The notes under the pieces were generated by a model. It ran no database searches and was not told the origin of the DNA. It worked only from the letters and a program-made list of their open reading frames with translations. From contig OX597826.1 of NCBI GenBank assembly GCA_951406725.2, positions 83,638,001 through 83,702,000 of the forward strand: 64,000 nucleotides of DNA, in the 5' to 3' direction. Below, one piece after another: positions 450-42,760 of this stretch. The DNA comes from Octopus vulgaris. Taxonomy: Eukaryota. Position numbers and translations under genes: made by a program. The number at the start of each line of letters is the position of its first letter. The first letter of the stretch is position 1.

Positions 450-1445
450 TATTTGATAAAATCAGTAAATATTTTTATGAGCTACTAATAGTTTCATTCG
501 ATGGAGACTACTAAAACAACATTTTATAACATGTCTGGTGCCTTCATGCAATCCTCAGGCTCTGCCCACAAGTTAGGATAATAGAGCAAGAAAAAATACA
601 AGAAAAGACAAGAAGAAAGTACATGTAAAAGGTGAAAAACGAAAGGAAAAGGAAAAAGAAATAGACAAAAGAAAAAGTAAAAAGAAAAAGGTGGGATTAG
701 AGTTATGTCTCCTTGGACCATAAAGTCATAATACTGAAGAGATAGGAGCCTAGGGTCTGCAGTACAGCTGCTCAATCCAGTGAAGGTGGTACTTTCCAAT
801 TCACCAATAGGAACTTGTCCATATGCTTATATCCACTGAAAATTTCAGATCTGGAATTCAGCAGTGCAGTAGAGTTCTTAGTTTTGAAAGGGATCTATGA
901 TCTTTCAGCTACACACAGCTTGCATTTTTTTGATTCATTGACATATGATGTAAATTTTCAACTATTTTCCACTTGATTGCATGCAGTGTGGCATTAGACT
1001 TCAAATTCTGCATGTGGCTAGCCAACTTAGTGGTTTTATTTTTGTCCCAGTGCCAGAAAGAAGATATGTGGTTAGCCTAGTAATTTTTTATATTGCCTTC
1101 ACATAACCCAAAGTAATTCTTCTTTTTGGTTATGTTATCATCTAGTATTGTTCTAGCTTCTACTTCATATATGATAAATTTAATTATGCACCCCTGGTTG
1201 AGTAGACAAATTCCTGGATTTCAACAGTTACACCTGGGAATAGTCTCTTGCTGATGCTTGCATGTAATAATGCTCTTCAAATTGAAGCAGCAGCTACATG
1301 ATAATTTGACCGAGTGCCTCTTGAATATTTTTCTGTACCTGTGATTTAAGGGAAAATGTTTGTCTAAGATAAACAGGTATCTTTTAATTATGTTGTTTTT
1401 AACATTAAGGGAAAGGTGTGGGCAAACCAAATTACTCTACTGGGT
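450..1445 (-). mobile_element. Degenerate Penelope-like element 3' part (RT C-terminal linker, GIY-YIG endonuclease, 3' pLTR)
   Basis: ORF 1221-1430 (LDKHFP..HRYRKIF..SVKLS..CNC) continues through stops and frameshifts as IIYEV..YFGLCEG..IKWKI..KCKLC..LNSRSEIF..KFLL. It is collinear with the 36836-37570 protein and ends beside (TA)n at about 394-436. Confidence 0.8.
513..563 (-). ncRNA. Degenerate type I hammerhead ribozyme motif in the PLE 3' region
   Basis: Minus strand reads AGAGC CUGAGGA UUGCAUG..CAUGUUAU AAAAUGUU GUUUU. AAAAUGUU is GAAACGUU with two transitions. It lies about 230 bp past the EN ORF, like the 37767 motif. Confidence 0.4.
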
Positions 1446-6589: not shown

Positions 6590-6812
6590 TTAAATTGTTT
6601 CAGCTTTAAAGCTGCATTCACGCTAGGGCATCATTATATATATCCTTGAAATATGAGACTAGAAACAGCCAACAACTGATGAAGGGTTCTTTATGTTTGT
6701 TTTGTTTTCCATTTGTGTCTTTTGTTGTTTGAAAGAATAGTTTATGTTCAATGTACTCGTGCATCGTACTTTTTTGCTGTACATGTTTTGTGATATCCTG
6801 TGCCCATATATG
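6590..6812 (+). mobile_element. Short (TA)n-embedded repeat with degenerate permuted-hammerhead motif
   Basis: CCTTGAAA..ACAACTGATGAAGGG, a T-rich stretch, then CCTGTGCCCATATA. Same layout as the 35225, 36335 and 38920 copies. Confidence 0.6.
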
Positions 6813-8493: not shown

Positions 8494-9474
8494 AAACATT
8501 TTCCTTATGAGAGACTTGAAGTAACATAGGATCCCTTTCTTTTTCCTTTCTCTCTTTTTATGTGTGGTTCTGTGTGTGACAATATTTTCCAATTAATGCT
8601 AAATGGAGGATTTTTTTATTTTAATGTCCATATATGTTTGAATATTGAAGTGTCATTTTCCATGTTTGTGTTGCGAAATGTATGTGTGTGTTGGTTGTAT
8701 CTTAAACTAGTTTGCTGTAGATACTCCTAAATAAACACACCTAATCACAAAGTCTTACATGCTCGACGGAACATTTTCCTAAAAGAAACTGGTTAAATCT
8801 CTTAACTAACACTAGTAACCAGCAAAAGAATCTGCTGACAACTGTCCTTTCTGTTTGATTACATTCTTTTGTGACACCTTAAAAACTCCATGACCAAAAG
8901 CTGACACACCTAAATACTTAATTATGAAGTTTTACATTCTGGACTGAACTCTAAACTATAGTCTCATCATCCCCAAAACAAACAGATTAAATCTCCAGTT
9001 AGTGTCTAGACAGAATCAACAATAACTAAAGCTAGCTACAACTAATCACTTCACTGCTGACATTCTTTTGTGTACCCTAAAACACAACCCAAAGACTCGA
9101 AGGCGATACACCTAAATAGAGACACCTGATGAAAAAGTGCAACATAGATGACTGAATTCTGAAAAATAACACAACTCTAAAGTCAATCAATAAAAATCTT
9201 TCCATCATAACCTAGACTCTGACCAAATTATTATTGGAAAGAGCTCCACCTATTCCAGAAAAATTAAACTTACAAGAGACTTTATGAAGTCAAGATGAAC
9301 CCAAATGTTTCACAAAATCTCATGAAACCTTACAAAGCTGAAACTTCGTAATCACTGTCAACATTAATAAAGGAATAATGAATATGTATTCTTGAAATAG
9401 AATGGAGTAATCTTTCAGTCTCATGAAAAAATTGTTTTTATTATATCTTAACATAAAAATAAACATTAATGTGT

Positions 9475-34975: not shown

Positions 34976-35224
34976 CTCGAACACACATGAACACACACAT
35001 ACAGTCTTTTCACAGATGAGGATACAACATTATCCTTCAGTGGCTCACGTGGCATTATTCTCAGCTAATAAAAGATTACATATACTCTACTTTATGTATA
35101 TGCATGTATATATATATATATAGAGAGAGAGAGATAAAACTTACTTGGAAATGGATGCATGGCATTTGATCATATAATATTTTGTTACCACTTTAACCGT
35201 CCACAAAAAATCCCGAATTTTATT

Positions 35225-35392
35225 TAATTTGCTTTGCAAAAAGGCCTGTTTTAATGAAGTGACGTCTTGTCCCTACCTTTGAAATGTGGAGTAGATAAAA
35301 CAGGGAACAACTGATGAAGGGAATGTTCTTTATGTTGCCTGTCACGTTTCTCATTCTGTTGACATTTCTTTGATGTCCTGTACCATATATGC
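35225..35392 (+). mobile_element. Short repeat carrying a permuted hammerhead motif
   Basis: Same layout as 36480-36700. Ends CCTGTACCATATA. Confidence 0.75.
35261..35321 (+). ncRNA. Non-circularly permuted hammerhead ribozyme candidate
   Basis: GACGU C|UUGUCCCU A CCUUU GAAA UGUG ..AGGGAACAA CUGAUGA AGGG. Confidence 0.7.
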
Positions 35393-35504
35393 ATGTATAT
35401 ATATATATACGTATATATGTAAGCATATACACGTATGTATGTATGTATGTATATAAGCATATATTTATATATTATTTATATTATATATATATGTATACAT
35501 ATAT

Positions 35505-35913
35505 CGACCTACTGTGCTTGAGGAGACCAATTGAGTCAAGTACATCAACATCAAAATAAAAATCAAATGGAAATTGTAGTTGTGCGCCCCAAGCCGGTGG
35601 CACGTAAAAAGCACCATCTAAACATGGCCGATGCCAGTGCTGCCTTGATTGGCTTCCATGCCAGCGGCACGTAAAAAGCACCAACCGATTGTGGCCATTT
35701 GCCATCCTCCGCTGGCCCCTGTGCTGGTGGCATGTAAAAAGTACCCACTACACTCACAGAGGGGCTGGTGTTAGGAAGGGCATCCAGCTTTAGAAACACT
35801 GCCAGATAAGACTGGAGCCTGGTGCAGCTTCCTGGCTTCCCAGACCCTGGTCGAACGTCCAACCCATGCTAGCATGGAAAACGGACATTAAACGATGATG
35901 ATGATGATGATGA
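35505..35913 (+). mobile_element. RTE 3' UTR/tail copy with (GAT)n
   Basis: Matches 59710-60213, including the GGTGGCACGTAAAAAGCACC units. Confidence 0.9.
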
Positions 35914-36028
35914 TATATCATTTGTGGAAAACATAAATCTGAAAGAAGCACACTCTAAGATGTAGAGCAGGACAAAAATAGGGATGGCTGGTTTATTTTT
36001 AAGGGGTCTTGGGCGAACAGGTCTTTCA

Positions 36029-36085
36029 GATCTGACGATACACCATAAAGCTAAACCCTTTGTGAATGAGAAACTTAAGGTAATC
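36029..36085 (+). ncRNA. Type I hammerhead ribozyme candidate
   Basis: GAU CUGACGA..CAUAAAG/CUUUGUG..GAAA CUUAAG GUA AUC. Outer helix GGCUGGUUUAU (35986-35996) pairs with AUAAACCAGUC (36088-36098). Confidence 0.6.
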
Positions 36086-36123
36086 ACATAAACCAGTCTT
36101 TCCCATTTTTAATACATACATAC

Positions 36124-36180
<57 letters not shown>

Positions 36181-36191
36181 GATTCTATTTT

Positions 36192-36245
36192 AACAAAAAC
36201 TGTCTGACGAACGGGAACGTGAAACTCCGAGTAACAGGCTTTGTT
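36192..36245 (+). ncRNA. Intact minimal type I hammerhead ribozyme
   Basis: AACAAA-AA-CUGU CUGACGA ACG-GGAA-CGU GAAA CUC-C-GAG UA| ACAG-GC-UUUGUU. Perfect core, predicted cleavage after 36233. Confidence 0.88.
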
Positions 36246-36334
36246 GAATTTCTGCTGCTTTTAAATAAAGCATATTACTCTACCTCTTTTCTCCACCTTG
36301 TTTCACATTTATGTATTTACTCCGGTATATATAT

Positions 36335-36696
36335 AAAAAAGCCCTCATTGTTGGTTTCCTTGTCCTGTTTTTATGCTTTATATGTTCTGTATTTTTTATT
36401 TTTTGTATTGCTTTTACGTCCTGTTCTTGTCACTTTCTTTCCTTTTTTTTACTCCTCTGCAAAAAGAATTTTATTTAATTCATTTTGCAGGAAGGACTGC
36501 TTCGGCCGGATCATGTTCTGCCCTTACCTTCGAAACACGCATTGAGTTGAACCAGGGGCAGCTGATGAAGGGGAATATTCCTTGTATTGTTTGTCTTGTA
36601 CTCTGTTTTTTTCGTTGTTAAAAAAAGTCCGTTTCCTTGTTTGTTTTTATGTTTTCTTTTCTCGTTGTGTTCTACGTTTATTTGTGGTGTCCTGTA

Positions 36697-36700
<4 letters not shown>
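36335..36700 (+). mobile_element. (TA)n-embedded repeat (putative PLE pLTR / retrozyme-like unit) with permuted hammerhead
   Basis: T-rich flanks around a GC-rich core. Ends CCTGTACTCA(TA)n. Confidence 0.7.
36512..36573 (+). ncRNA. Non-circularly permuted hammerhead ribozyme candidate (best copy)
   Basis: CAUGU U|CUGCCCUU A CCUUC GAAA CACG ..AGGGGCAG CUGAUGA AGGGG, with an 8-bp stem I. Confidence 0.75.
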
Positions 36701-36740
<40 letters not shown>

Positions 36741-36835
36741 TGTATATATACATATAGATGTAGGTATGTACATATATGTATGTATGCATATATTTTATTT
36801 GTTAAATTGTTATTATATATATATATATATATATA

Positions 36836-37570
36836 ATGGTTGTATACTGTCAATCTAACAAGAACGTGACAGTAGGGGGTACACCACCATTATATAGCCC
36901 TAGGAGGTATCGAACGCCTCCTGACAGCTTCAACACATTTTATCCTGTGTCCTTATATACACATACGAAGGGGAGACAAACACCCCCAACTGCCGGAACT
37001 GCATCTAGGAAACTCTTCAATAGACACAATTTAAAAATTAGTTTTAGTTCAACTACCAATTTTAAAAACATAATCAATCATAACATACAAAAAACACAAG
37101 AAGAAAACAGCTGTTCATGCAGGAATAAAGAATTGTGCCCGCTAAATGGAGCTTGCATGTCCAAGACCATCATATATGAAGCTACCGTAAACTCTATAAC
37201 CACTAAAGACACCGTTTCGACGAAGAAATACGTGGGCCTGACAGAGGGTAATTTCAAGGCCAGGTTCAATAACCACACTTTGAGCTTTAGGCACTGGAAC
37301 AAAAGAAAAGCGACACAATTATCCAATCATATTTGGTCTTTAAGAGATAAAGGTGTCGATTATAACATACAATGGAAGATTTTGGCCAGATGTAAGCCCT
37401 ACACTAACGGCAGCGGAAGGTGCGGTTTATGCGACATGGAGAGATGGCTTATCTGGAAAAGCAGCTTAGACCCTACCACATGTCTAAATACAAGGACAGA
37501 GCTTTTCGGATCATACCCACATGTGACTAAATTTCTGTTACGTTTTTGGTCCCCTAAAGAAAACGGATAG
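36836..37570 (+). CDS. GIY-YIG endonuclease ORF of a Penelope-like element (244 aa, no RT)
   Basis: CSCRNKELCPLNGAC, IIYEA..YVGLTE..FKARFNNH, WKIL, CGLC..E, LNTRTE. This Cys pattern resembles Hydra-clade PLEs (from recall, not tested). Confidence 0.8.
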   Translation: MVVYCQSNKNVTVGGTPPLYSPRRYRTPPDSFNTFYPVSLYTHTKGRQTPPTAGTASRKLFNRHNLKISFSSTTNFKNIINHNIQKTQEENSCSCRNKELCPLNGACMSKTIIYEATVNSITTKDTVSTKKYVGLTEGNFKARFNNHTLSFRHWNKRKATQLSNHIWSLRDKGVDYNIQWKILARCKPYTNGSGRCGLCDMERWLIWKSSLDPTTCLNTRTELFGSYPHVTKFLLRFWSPKENG

Positions 37571-37761
37571 AACATGCTTTCTGTGTTATGTCCCAAGAAG
37601 ATTTTATATATTTTTATAAATATTTTTATATATTTTTATGTATTTTTATATAATTTTTATGACGAAAAATGCGAGCGATGTATAAGTACGCAGGCAAAGC
37701 AGAGTTATAACAGAGTAATTTCCCTTCATTTTTAACGGTATTTTTTCATAACGTTTTCAAA

Positions 37762-37834
37762 TAGCCAGATAACCGAAGAGATGGTGTTGTGGATTTCCAC
37801 TTCGGCATCTGAAACTCAGAGTTTTATCTTGACT
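37762..37834 (+). ncRNA. Type I hammerhead motif (U4>C) in the PLE 3' pLTR
   Basis: AGAUAA CCGAAGA GAUG..CAUC U GAAA CUC-A-GAG UU UUAUCU. Confidence 0.7.
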
Positions 37835-38104
37835 ACCGAGTAATGTAACATATTGTATAGATAAATTTCCTCTATTTACATAATATTGAGGTCTCTTTCT
37901 TTCTTTTGTTATCTTACCGTTTTATCAATATATATATATATATATATATACCAAATATATATGTTTTTATTATTATTTTGCAATTTACTTAATCATCAGT
38001 ATATTATTGTTATTTTATTTTTTATATTTCTATTATATGTAATTTAATTGTTCATTTTGAATTGATAAAATGTGTATTTTTCTAATTTATATATATATAT
38101 ATGT

Positions 38105-38763: not shown

Positions 38764-39000
38764 TATTGTATGCTACAAAACCTCCAAAACCATAAACCCT
38801 TAATTAAGTATTATCCTAGCTTGAAAAGACTATGAACATAGACAATCATACAACATTAGTATATTTGATAACACCAACATTACAACTACCACAAACCATG
38901 AACTCTGTAACTTGCCAGCCATATGAGAATGAAGGACAACTCAGAATAATGATACACAAGACATAAAAGATTCACAGACAACAAATGTATCAAAGACATA

Positions 39001-39060
39001 TTCCCTTCATCAGCTGCCCAATGGATATCATTATGGTTTTGACACCTAGGAGTACCATTC
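39001..39060 (-). ncRNA. Permuted hammerhead family copy (degenerate)
   Basis: Minus strand reads AUGGU A|CUCCUAG GUGUC AAAA CCAU ..UUGGGCAG CUGAUGA AGGG. Confidence 0.6.
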
Positions 39061-39327
39061 AGTTTGGCAATGTCAACTACATTAAAAATATATATATATC
39101 TTGGTGTGTTTTAAAGCATTAAAATGTCAGAGAATGAGATTTGGTGGCGGGGGGGGGGGCTGTTTGATTGAAAATGATGCTGTAAATGAAACTCATAAAA
39201 GATGATGTAAAATACCTGTTAGGAAATAATGGAGAGAATCACTCCCAGGAATGAAACTCTGAGTCCATCAATTACGAAACAGTGATGGTAACCCTTACAC
39301 CAGGATGACTCCGACAAACTAAATATG

Positions 39328-39971: not shown

Positions 39972-40488
39972 ATTCCAGTACATACAGACCGAACCATCAA
40001 GGCCAATAAACCAGATATTGTTGTGAAAGACCAAAACAATAAAGTTTGCTTATTGATCAACATGAGCATCCCCTGTGATCATAATATCTCAGCGAAAGAG
40101 TTTGACAAGCTCAGAAAATATAAAGACCTACTCATTGAAATTGAGAAAATGTGGCATCTCAAAGCGGTTACAATACCAGTGATCGTAGGAGCACTAGGAA
40201 TGATCAAGAAGGGAACCGAAAATTATATGAGAATGATCCCTGGCTTACCATCCCTGCAAGAAGTGCAAAAGATTGTCTTAACTGGTACATCACACGTATT
40301 GAGAAGAGCATTGTCGATGTGAGAACTGTTGCTGCTCATGTATTTTAATTTAACTTTAAAAAAAATGAACGAACTACTGAGTTTGGTTTAATGGCCTACC
40401 AATGTATACTATGAGTTTCTTTGCCCTAGGAGTCAGGAATACACTCAGCAAGAAATGGAAGCAAATTTGAAAGAAGAAGAAAAAAAAA

Positions 40489-40490
<2 letters not shown>
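39972..40490 (+). mobile_element. R4/Dong-like RLE LINE, 5'-truncated copy 1
   Basis: TDRTIKANKPDIV..KYKDL..MW..PVIVGALG..LRRALSM*, flanked by (AAT)n. Confidence 0.9.
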
Positions 40491-40564
<74 letters not shown>

Positions 40565-40583
40565 TAATAATAATAATAATAAT

Positions 40584-41417
40584 ACTGAAACCGAAGGGTT
40601 TATCATAGCAGCTCAAGATCAATGCCTACCAACAAGAAACTACCAGGCCAACATATTAAAGAACGGCAGTAGCCCAACATGTCGTGTATGCTGACAACAA
40701 AATGAAACCATTGACCATGTTGTCTCCAAATGCAGTCTTCTAGTGCCTACAGAGTACCTCAGTAGACATGATAGAGCTGCACAATATATTCACTGGGTAA
40801 TTTGCAAAAACCTGGATTTGCCCCATGAAAAAAACTGTGCTTGAAAATGACCACATCTCACTCCTCTGGAACTTCATCATTCAAACTGACAGGAAGATAG
40901 ATGCAAATAGGCCAGACATCATATTGAAAGACTTCAGACAAAGAACATGCCTCCTCATTGATATGACTGTCCTAATCGATATAAACGTATCTGTCAAGAC
41001 CTACCAAAAACTGAGCAAATATAAAGATCTTGAAATAGAAATCAGCAAAATGTGGAAGCTGAAGACTAAAACAATACCTGTTGTCATAGGTGCCCTGGGA
41101 ATGATAGCGAAAGGGACTGATTGCTACCTAACTCAGATACCAGGAAACCCCAAAATGGCAGAAATTCAAAAGATAGTGCTCATGGGAACTGCTCATATCC
41201 TACGCAAAATACTCTCTATGTAATCCCAAGGTTTAAAACAAACTTTTTTTTTTATTTATTTATTTATTTTTTTTTTTAATTTATGTATTAGACATTCACT
41301 AGTACAACACAAAAAAAAAACCCCCAAATATATGGCACAGAACTTCCAACCTGTTGTCTCTTGAGGTCTCTGGGTGAGACTTGGAGCCAACTTGTACAGA
41401 CATAAAGCAAAAGTCAA
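40584..41417 (+). mobile_element. R4/Dong-like RLE LINE, 5'-truncated copy 2
   Basis: ETEGFIIAAQDQ, CRVC..H..C zinc knuckle, RHD, NRPDII..KYKDL. Flanked by (AAT)n. Confidence 0.92.
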
Positions 41418-41656
<239 letters not shown>

Positions 41657-42760
41657 ACTACCAAGCAAGCAAAGTGTAACTACCAAGCAAGCAAAGCGTA
41701 ACTACCAAGCAAGCAAAGCGAATAAGAGCCGGAAACCACTGCTACCAAGCAAGCAAAGCGAATAAGAGCCGGAAACCACTGCTACCAAGCAAGCAAAGCG
41801 AATCAAGCAGACTGCAAAAAAGAACGGGCAGAATCAAATTGAGAGGCGGTGGAGCCAGAAGCCCCTGCATGGACAATATATTCTACGAAGCCAAAATGCT
41901 GATGTAGACCAAGCAACAACCCATGAGTGGCTGAAGAGCTCTGGATTGAAAGCAGAGACTGAAGGTTTCATAATGGCAGCACAAGATCAAAGCTTGTTTA
42001 CCAGAAATTACCAGGCTAACATTCTCCGAAACGGTACTGACCCTAAATGCAGATTCTGTGACACATTTGACGAAACAATAGACCATCTCGTTTCGGGATG
42101 TCCTGTGCTGACACCAAACGAATACAAAAATCGCCACGATAGGGTAGGACAGTATATACATTGGAAGATATGTAAACACTACAAATCCGACACTCCTGCT
42201 AACTGGTATGAACACCATCCTCAGCCAGTTGTTGAAGGAAAAGATGTCACCATCCTCTGGGATTTTCCAGTCAACACTGACAGAACGATCAAGGCTAATC
42301 GACCAGACATAATTGTTAAAGACAGGGAAGAAAATACCTGCAGACTAATAGAAGTAAGCGTCCCCACTGATAAAAATGTATCTGTCAAGGAATTTGACAA
42401 ACTTAGTAAAGGACCTGGAAATCGAAATACAGAGGATGTGGAATCTTAAAACAAAAACTGTTCCTGTTATTGTAGGTGCCCTAGGTATGATAAAAAAGGA
42501 ATGTCAGAAACACCTAGACAATATCCCTGGAAAACCATGTCTCAAGGAAATCCAAAAGATTGTGCTAACAAGTACTGCCCACATCCTTAGAAAAACCCTA
42601 TCAATGTAAATGTTTGTGTTTGCATTACATGGAGATATTTCTCTACTTCCCCTCCCCAAGCTTTCAGCTATATTTCAACAACTCTTAACCTTCACTTGCC
42701 CTAGGGCGCTGGGTGTGCCCCGGCAGGTGATTGCATCAAACATGCAGATTAAAAGTAAAT
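41657..42760 (+). mobile_element. R4/Dong-like RLE LINE, 5'-truncated copy 3
   Basis: WSQKPLHGQY..KAETEGFIMAAQDQ..CRFC..HLVSGC..RHD..RPDII, with a frameshift near 42410. Flanked by (AAT)n. Confidence 0.93.

Follow-up and report, generated by a model that had tools for sequence, protein, structure and literature searches.

Penelope-like elements (PLEs) of the Hydra clade, of which Hydra-1_Obim is the nearest described relative of an element reported below, are recognized by a length of <3 kb, only one open reading frame (ORF), and the motifs RWK, DKT, CxCx5C, CxxC, and CxH (Craig et al., 2021, PMC8557442). In the same source no canonical hammerhead ribozyme is reported for the Naiad clade, and Naiad_Ovul and seven other elements are marked "HHR_half_core". 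The single minimal hammerheads of PLEs are described as inactive in vitro and their dimers as weak, a like partner being needed (PMC4209133). Type-SGC hammerheads, for which cleavage has been shown, are described as present in none of the genomes of known organisms, and either CUGAUGAG or CUGAUGAUG is demanded by the two published descriptors (Eckert et al., 2023, PMC10085705). A search of the open-access literature returned no report of SGC-order hammerheads in animals or PLEs. Here we analyzed a stretch of 64,000 nucleotides of the 2.8-Gb genome of Octopus vulgaris (GCA_951406725.2, contig OX597826.1, positions 83,638,001 to 83,702,000, forward strand; hereafter the window), which is AT-rich with many microsatellites, has repeats similar to octopus elements already described, and in which an initial annotation had marked an array of five hammerhead motifs within 2.6 kb.

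Our analysis makes it likely that these 2.6 kb hold the truncated 3' ends of five PLE families (A to E), which probably arrived by serial insertion into (TA)n and probably share their direction by chance, and that the two predicted SGC-order hammerheads among them, those of A and D, probably derive from Naiads. What matters here is the SGC-order hammerhead and the junction between E and a fragment of a retrozyme-like family, S (the S/E chimera); the array itself is ordinary.

Both strands of the window were searched with a type I hammerhead descriptor, which at the loose setting gave three matches, all on the plus strand (cores at 36032, 36204, and 37773), against an average of 0.23 and a maximum of 2 in 100 block-wise dinucleotide shuffles; at the strict setting, core 36204 alone passed (shuffle mean 0.02). 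An Rfam search of the window returned no hammerhead at the gathering score and none among 66 weak matches. Together with GAAA at 35281 and 36532 and CUGAUGA at 35311 and 36562, the descriptor matches place all five motifs on the plus strand where the initial annotation had put them, and its observations as a whole hold in part. The two motifs it had called permuted are real but are not circular permutations, their blocks running in the order site, GAAA, CUGAUGA. Its count of at least four unrelated families holds, there being five, of which A and D are related (alignment A2, below). The (TA)n spacers are found between B and C, between C and D, and between D and the next insert, but the gap between A and B is filled by a common 410-bp repeat without a ribozyme. 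The five motifs are co-oriented but the array is not purely of one direction: a minus-strand piece of S lies inside it (36831-37009), a piece of A is inverted (35132-35179), and a further decayed minus-strand motif stands about 1 kb beyond it (38961-39085). Finally, the reported GIY-YIG ORF, a 254 amino acid frame at 36806-37570, is a chimera, in which 37001-37567 encodes the protein of a GIY-YIG element and the remainder does not.

Each motif is the 3' end of its own dispersed family. In all five families the 3' end is sharp and runs into TA, and the 5' ends are ragged and frequently bear an inverted piece; every one of the families is 5'-truncated, so that the last 150-900 bp survive, ribozyme included. 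The window copies differ in their identity to the family majority (taken from 29 other copies each, the best matches), with 92.7% for A, 87.4% for B, 98.0% for C, 96.9% for D, and 99.2% for E, which indicates that the families did not insert together. A query spanning 36179-36700 splits into C and D, and no non-self match crosses the junction between them.

Full copies of E form 2.59-kb tandem units with a single 708 amino acid ORF, in which a reverse transcriptase (RT) is followed by a C-terminal GIY-YIG domain. The protein bears RWK, DKT, the CxCx5C linker, CxxC, and CxH (in the window copy, Y replaces the C of CxH), and its Pfam GIY-YIG match is weak on the window piece (E 0.013) and absent on the full protein. 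The 3' end runs into TA at 24 of 30 loci and into the next tandem unit at the other six. By size, ORF layout, motifs, TA target, and terminal hammerhead, E is assigned to the Hydra clade. At three loci (L031, at G000:C3:37224001-37234000, L033, and L035) near-identical 2.59-kb units of E make up large mirror arrays, and the 708 amino acid ORF is open in several of these units; E is probably a currently active element. Family B has a Hydra-type endonuclease immediately upstream at two loci (L118 and L109), and C has a Hydra-type RT/endonuclease remnant upstream in one duplicated locus (L148/L149), its end being probably Hydra-type as well. In the window, stem I of the B hammerhead has decayed from 5-6 bp to 3 bp, and the stem II foot of the E hammerhead is one base too long or too short, a trait shared with the other copies of E. 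In C, E, S, and a Neptune-like family (in L172), four type I families that are unrelated to each other, the majority core is CCGANGA, not CUGANGA, and the canonical U of the window C copy is a private change.

Families A and D are non-coding units of 0.8-0.9 kb that occur in partial tandems. An ORF search in their longest copies and tandems found none, and tblastn matches of the Hydra protein in A and D loci belong to neighboring elements. At two loci (L045 and L082) the A/D unit begins with a splice-donor-like site followed by a pyrimidine-rich stretch, comparable to the 5' intron of Penelope.

The motif of A and D is built from three strands: the first carries a stem III arm, UH, and a stem I arm; the second, a stem II arm, GAAA, and a stem III arm; and the third, a stem I arm, CUGAUGA, and a stem II arm. 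As read from the sequence, this is the order of type-SGC and not of type I, II, or III. A type II or III circular permutation was considered and rejected, as there is no stem I hairpin past the would-be site and no GAAA past the core. In each of seven subfamily sets, which together hold 88 distinct copies, UH is present in the chosen register along with majority pairs at three or four of the four stem III positions and five or six of the six stem I positions, and none of 42 slid registers gives both UH and the stem pairing. Stems I and III covary when A, D/F/J, G, and the Naiad-type set are compared: three or four different Watson-Crick pairs occur at three of the four stem III positions, and two at four of the six stem I positions, and UH is invariably the site. 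In a MAFFT alignment of 24 copies of A/D/F/J (A2; chosen from 47 listed plus the two of the window), 91.4% of cells pair, vs. 35-60% in slid controls, with eight two-sided changes, and three pairs of stem III and two of stem I change on both sides; an all-lineage MAFFT alignment (A1) was left uncounted, its site block being shifted in G and N. The distance from cut to GAAA is 13-14 nt, which leaves a stem I-stem II link of 2-4 nt in A, D, F, and J. A candidate outer helix between the flanks of stems I and II has 79% of its cells paired and two-sided changes in three of five pairs, and is poor in A at this register.

Genome-wide, one exact SGC pattern has 1,883 matches (944 + 939) vs. 0 + 0 in the control, and a second has 257 + 228 vs. 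25 + 21 and exposes the distant lineage G. A strict SGC descriptor applied to the window found A and missed D because of a stem III mismatch, and among metagenome contigs the SGC pattern matched 119 stretches, none of which passed the SGC descriptor. Three further divergent SGC-order lineages (L306, L323, and L326) have different stem I arms and few copies each; a decayed SGC-order motif of an A-related subfamily, like L326, also lies at 6639-6724 (+) of the window and ends in the TA-rich tail of A.

Several points weigh against reading this motif as a ribozyme. Stem II has no two-sided change in A2, and past the invariant G10.1-C11.1 pair it is G-U or mismatched in every lineage. A perfect 5-bp alternative pairing in A and D would hide G8 and A9. 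The registers were selected for their pairing, and copies that are related may outdo shuffles even where no structure exists. Z-scores from nested folding of the five motifs range from -1.7 to +0.2, in a model that leaves pseudoknots outside. Finally, both window copies are damaged, that of A having U at 11.1.

Two alternatives address this weakness of stem II. It is possible, if doubtful, that the motif cleaves as a split core, with a local hairpin that follows CUGAUGA as its stem II, an opening of the core immediately ahead of GAAA, and outer helices that hold the parts together. A local hairpin of 4-5 bp can be drawn directly past CUGAUGA in the majorities of A, D, F, and G, the cross-strand stem II is weak, and the fourth helix further out has three two-sided changes; however, a C before GAAA and a G two bases past CUGAUGA are the majority in all seven sets, as the G10.1-C11.1 pair predicts, and the Naiad set has no local C for that G, with a hairpin there made of wobble pairs only. 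We consider it unlikely that the motif is instead a conserved fold that does not cleave, such as a binding site for the protein of the element. The weak stem II and the strong competing pairings would suit such a fold, cleavage being a prediction from sequence, but all core letters, UH at the stem III/I junction, and both stems are kept, as cleavage would demand, in lineages that are unlike at the majority of stem positions, and the SGC order does cleave in vitro (PMC10085705). Under the preferred reading, a cross-strand SGC-order ribozyme, intact members of the A/D type would cut after UH within the transcript of the element itself, and would do so as monomers.

As to the origin of this motif, the published ends of Naiad_Obim and Naiad_Ovul (PMC8557442, supplement) follow SGC order and have the stem I of D, and a Naiad-type pattern has 145 exact matches in the genome vs. 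0 in the control; at L418 such a match lies downstream of a C-terminus like that of Naiads. Inspection by eye of two other Naiad entries in that supplement showed no such motif at their ends; it may not be universal among Naiads. A whole Naiad was sought in five widened loci, which yielded a broken C-terminal RT remnant in L435 with no meaningful Pfam match. Against a Naiad origin, A and D share no ORF with Naiads (N-terminal GIY-YIG, CxC, and RT were not seen), and as Naiad derivatives they can therefore only be non-autonomous. What A, D, and Naiads do share is the 3' terminal motif and the TA target, from which we infer descent from, or mobilization by, Naiads; the SGC-order motif was probably inherited from these retrotransposons.

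The S/E junction concerns a young family (98% identity) with a 364-bp tandem period and its own type I hammerhead. Units of S at two loci (L443 and L444) have hammerhead stems I-III, and the window holds a fragment that lacks the core. In this, S matches the design of non-LTR retrozymes, whose short non-coding units stand in tandem and each carry a type I hammerhead. A second tandem family of about 360 bp, M (L335 2236-4584 and L056 2352-3110), has a type I hammerhead-like motif per unit and is a candidate retrozyme. The ends of S inserts lie at unit position 179 or 234, and at 22 of its 34 loci two S arms are paired head-to-head. In the window, an S arm on the left (-) meets an E arm on the right (+); the two overlap by 4 nt without TA between them, and the S fragment starts at the first base past its predicted ribozyme cut. 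The 5' end falls at the cut site in three of the 34 loci (the window, L441, and L470), a count made where ends crowd and with a query selected for it; cut-site 5' ends in S are only suggestive. We lean somewhat toward S and E being one composite insertion, in which a Hydra enzyme would have used both RNAs, copying E RNA at one nick and ribozyme-cut S RNA at the other. Alternatively, two insertions were followed by a deletion. The chimera is a single case among the 34 S loci, which weighs against a composite insertion, and at the other E loci no S was found beside E. The junction is a possible record of trans-mobilization.

A wider proposal, which we regard as evenly balanced, joins these two subjects: thousands of active hammerheads in animal chromosomes, permuted in a non-circular way and able to cut as monomers because their stem III is a true helix of 4-5 bp, would be the missing terminal ribozyme of Naiads and that of several non-coding derivative families, and the S/E junction would reflect a Hydra enzyme picking up ribozyme-cut retrozyme RNA. 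If this is true, the junction would be direct evidence for the mobilizer of animal retrozymes, and more S/E chimeras, if found, would name the enzyme that moves a retrozyme. Through the A/D motifs, which published SGC descriptors miss by one base, type-SGC hammerheads, so far a matter of environmental RNA, would have a place in an animal genome; the "half cores" of Naiads would be explained, and the view that one of the very successful PLE clades can spread with no ribozyme would lose its basis.

The array can be accounted for by TA targeting. GIY-YIG endonucleases that target TA would nick (TA)n and prime reverse transcription, each insertion would leave TA on both sides, and some families would bring TA-rich tails, so that targets would be regenerated. 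Against a background of 31 matches in 600 kb (35-36 ribozyme-centered probes on 60 evenly spaced 10-kb stretches), 17 neighbors of other families lie within 600 bp downstream of 170 focal copies, vs. 5.3 expected (Poisson p 4e-5), so that the pile-up is real and about threefold; the five ends in 2.6 kb are the upper tail of this clustering. Two points temper this result: upstream neighbors are not significantly enriched (9 vs. 5.3 expected, p 0.09), and the loci are best matches rather than a random sample, with a probe library that covers some families. The serial insertion hotspot for PLE-type ends proposed in the initial annotation is supported by the fixed 3' ends with (TA)n, the variable 5' truncation, the unequal ages, and the downstream enrichment. 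Its interpretation survives in part, as the co-orientation of adjacent inserts, which it had named as its own test, did not appear. In the largest set (309 loci), 22 of 53 different-family pairs are co-oriented and 31 opposite (p 0.27, 95% confidence interval 0.28-0.56), including 20 of 46 where TA lies between the pair. Other sets, which overlap and are not independent, gave 21/50 pairs, 14/26 near focal copies, and 9/17 directly downstream, and all five other loci with at least three families have mixed orientation. Neighbors of the same family are head-to-head in 52 of 73 cases and in tandem in 19, the usual PLE pattern (PMC8557442). The shared direction of the five inserts, with a probability of 1/16 if orientations are independent, is likely chance. 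A bias of insertion beside an older PLE end toward the same direction, for instance through an asymmetry that the older 3' end gives to the TA target, is improbable: all five motifs of the window agree with it and the confidence interval leaves room for a bias of a few percent, but it is opposed by the 22/53 and 9/17 counts and by two minus-strand inserts at the locus itself. The array is an ordinary outcome of TA targeting, and no new mechanism is needed.

Cuts after 35266, 36082, 36233, 36517, and 37823 would divide a read-through transcript into fragments of 816, 151, 284, and 1306 nt, each a fusion of one family's tail with the head of a different family. Closing these fragments leaves stem I with 0-2 bp or stem III with 1 bp where the ends meet, one lacks a core altogether, and none of the four cut-to-cut monomers rebuilds a ribozyme. 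The array comprises five different families, two of them not type I, and is not a tandem of one retrozyme unit. A C/E heterodimer was also considered from the sequence and rejected, as the stem III palindromes could pair and stem I cannot. Assembled sequencing-run contigs compared with 36182-36698 gave short pieces of many copies, none of those listed bridging C and D, a result with no bearing on expression. The array as a whole very probably has no unit-processing or retrozyme-like function. Its five motifs do share one strand within 2.6 kb, and RNA with 5'-OH and 2',3'-cyclic-phosphate ends is ligatable in principle. Even so, a functional cassette whose read-through RNA is cut into units that circularize as retrozymes, as initially annotated, is highly improbable, given that its fragments fuse halves of unlike families and restore no ribozyme, that single minimal type I motifs are reported as inactive (PMC4209133), that the motifs of A and B are decayed and a minus-strand insert lies within the array, and that no non-self match crosses the C/D junction.

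The coordinates of the array and its flank are given in Table 1.

Table 1. Features of the hammerhead array and its flank (window coordinates).
Feature	Position	Strand	Remarks
Inverted piece of the family A 5' region (PLE-type 5' inversion)	35132-35179	-	48 nt, 94% to L082, opposite to main match
Family A, 5'-truncated copy of a non-coding PLE-like unit of ~0.8 kb with TA-rich tail	35180-35504	+	92.7% to majority of 29 copies
Hammerhead in SGC strand order, damaged (family A)	35261-35322	+	U at C11.1 and C15.2 and a single mismatch in stem I; cut predicted after 35266
410-bp common repeat between A and B, tail (GAT)n, no hammerhead	35505-35914	+	11 more matches within the window
Family B, Hydra-type PLE 3' end with type I minimal hammerhead	35915-36113	+	Core 36032, predicted cut after 36082; 87.4% to majority
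(TA)n target tract	36114-36178	.	Pure TA 36131-36178
Family C, 3' end of a probably Hydra-type PLE; its type I minimal hammerhead is the best formed	36179-36330	+	Core 36204; cut predicted after 36233
Family D, 5'-truncated copy of a non-coding PLE-like unit of ~0.9 kb with TA-rich tail	36334-36815	+	96.9% to majority
Hammerhead in SGC strand order, nearly intact (family D)	36512-36573	+	Stem III with one A-C mismatch; cut predicted after 36517
Family S fragment (young retrozyme-like family, 364-nt tandem unit)	36831-37009	-	Begins at predicted cut, core absent, head-to-head with E
Family E, 5'-truncated young Hydra-clade PLE	37006-37930	+	Last 189 of 708 amino acids of RT + GIY-YIG protein (37001-37567), then 3' untranslated region
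Type I hammerhead of E, atypical	37767-37829	+	CCGAAGA core; predicted cut after 37823
(TA)n at right end of E	37928-37950	.	
Old Naiad-type 3' end with decayed SGC-order motif	38770-39090	-	Core at 39013, motif 38961-39085; opposite to array; compared by eye with Naiad_Obim and Naiad_Ovul

Copies of the family at 38770-39090 are 70-84% identical, and one locus (C29:9440149-9441693) has five of them about 340 bp apart. Elsewhere in the window, 796-1424 (-) and 8562-8702 (-) are remnants of Hydra-type endonucleases of older families, with about 42% identity to the E protein. Three fragments of the C-terminus of a non-LTR (long terminal repeat) retrotransposon, with a zf-RVT match and restriction-like endonuclease motifs, lie at 39972-42449 (+), each beside (AAT)n; we take them to resemble Hero/R4-type elements.

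Compared with described systems, E is closest to Hydra-1_Obim (Craig et al., 2021, PMC8557442) and resembles the Hydra clade in its 2.59-kb unit, its one RT/GIY-YIG ORF with the motifs RWK, DKT, CxCx5C, CxxC, and CxH, its type I hammerhead, its (TA)n target, its partial tandems, and its 5' inversions; the ends of B and probably C are of the Hydra kind too. In contrast to Hydra-1_Obim, E is a distinct, very young family (about 99% identity) with a CCGA core and an irregular stem II foot. The A/D motif resembles type-SGC hammerheads (PMC10085705) in its block order of site, GAAA, and CUGAUGA, its three crossing stems, its short stem I-II link, its one extra base past A9, and its candidate outer helix between the stem I and II flanks. 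It departs from them in that the extra base in A, D, and G is A, reading CUGAUGAAG, which both descriptors exclude, and A and D have a much weaker stem II than SGC-1. As non-coding partial tandems, A and D are of like design to non-LTR retrozymes and the PLE elements with minimal hammerheads (PMC4209133), but carry an SGC-order motif where non-LTR retrozymes carry type I. Family S, by comparison, is like the non-LTR retrozymes (bioRxiv 10.64898/2026.07.22.740005) in its 364-nt tandem unit, type I hammerhead, stable fold, and TA target.

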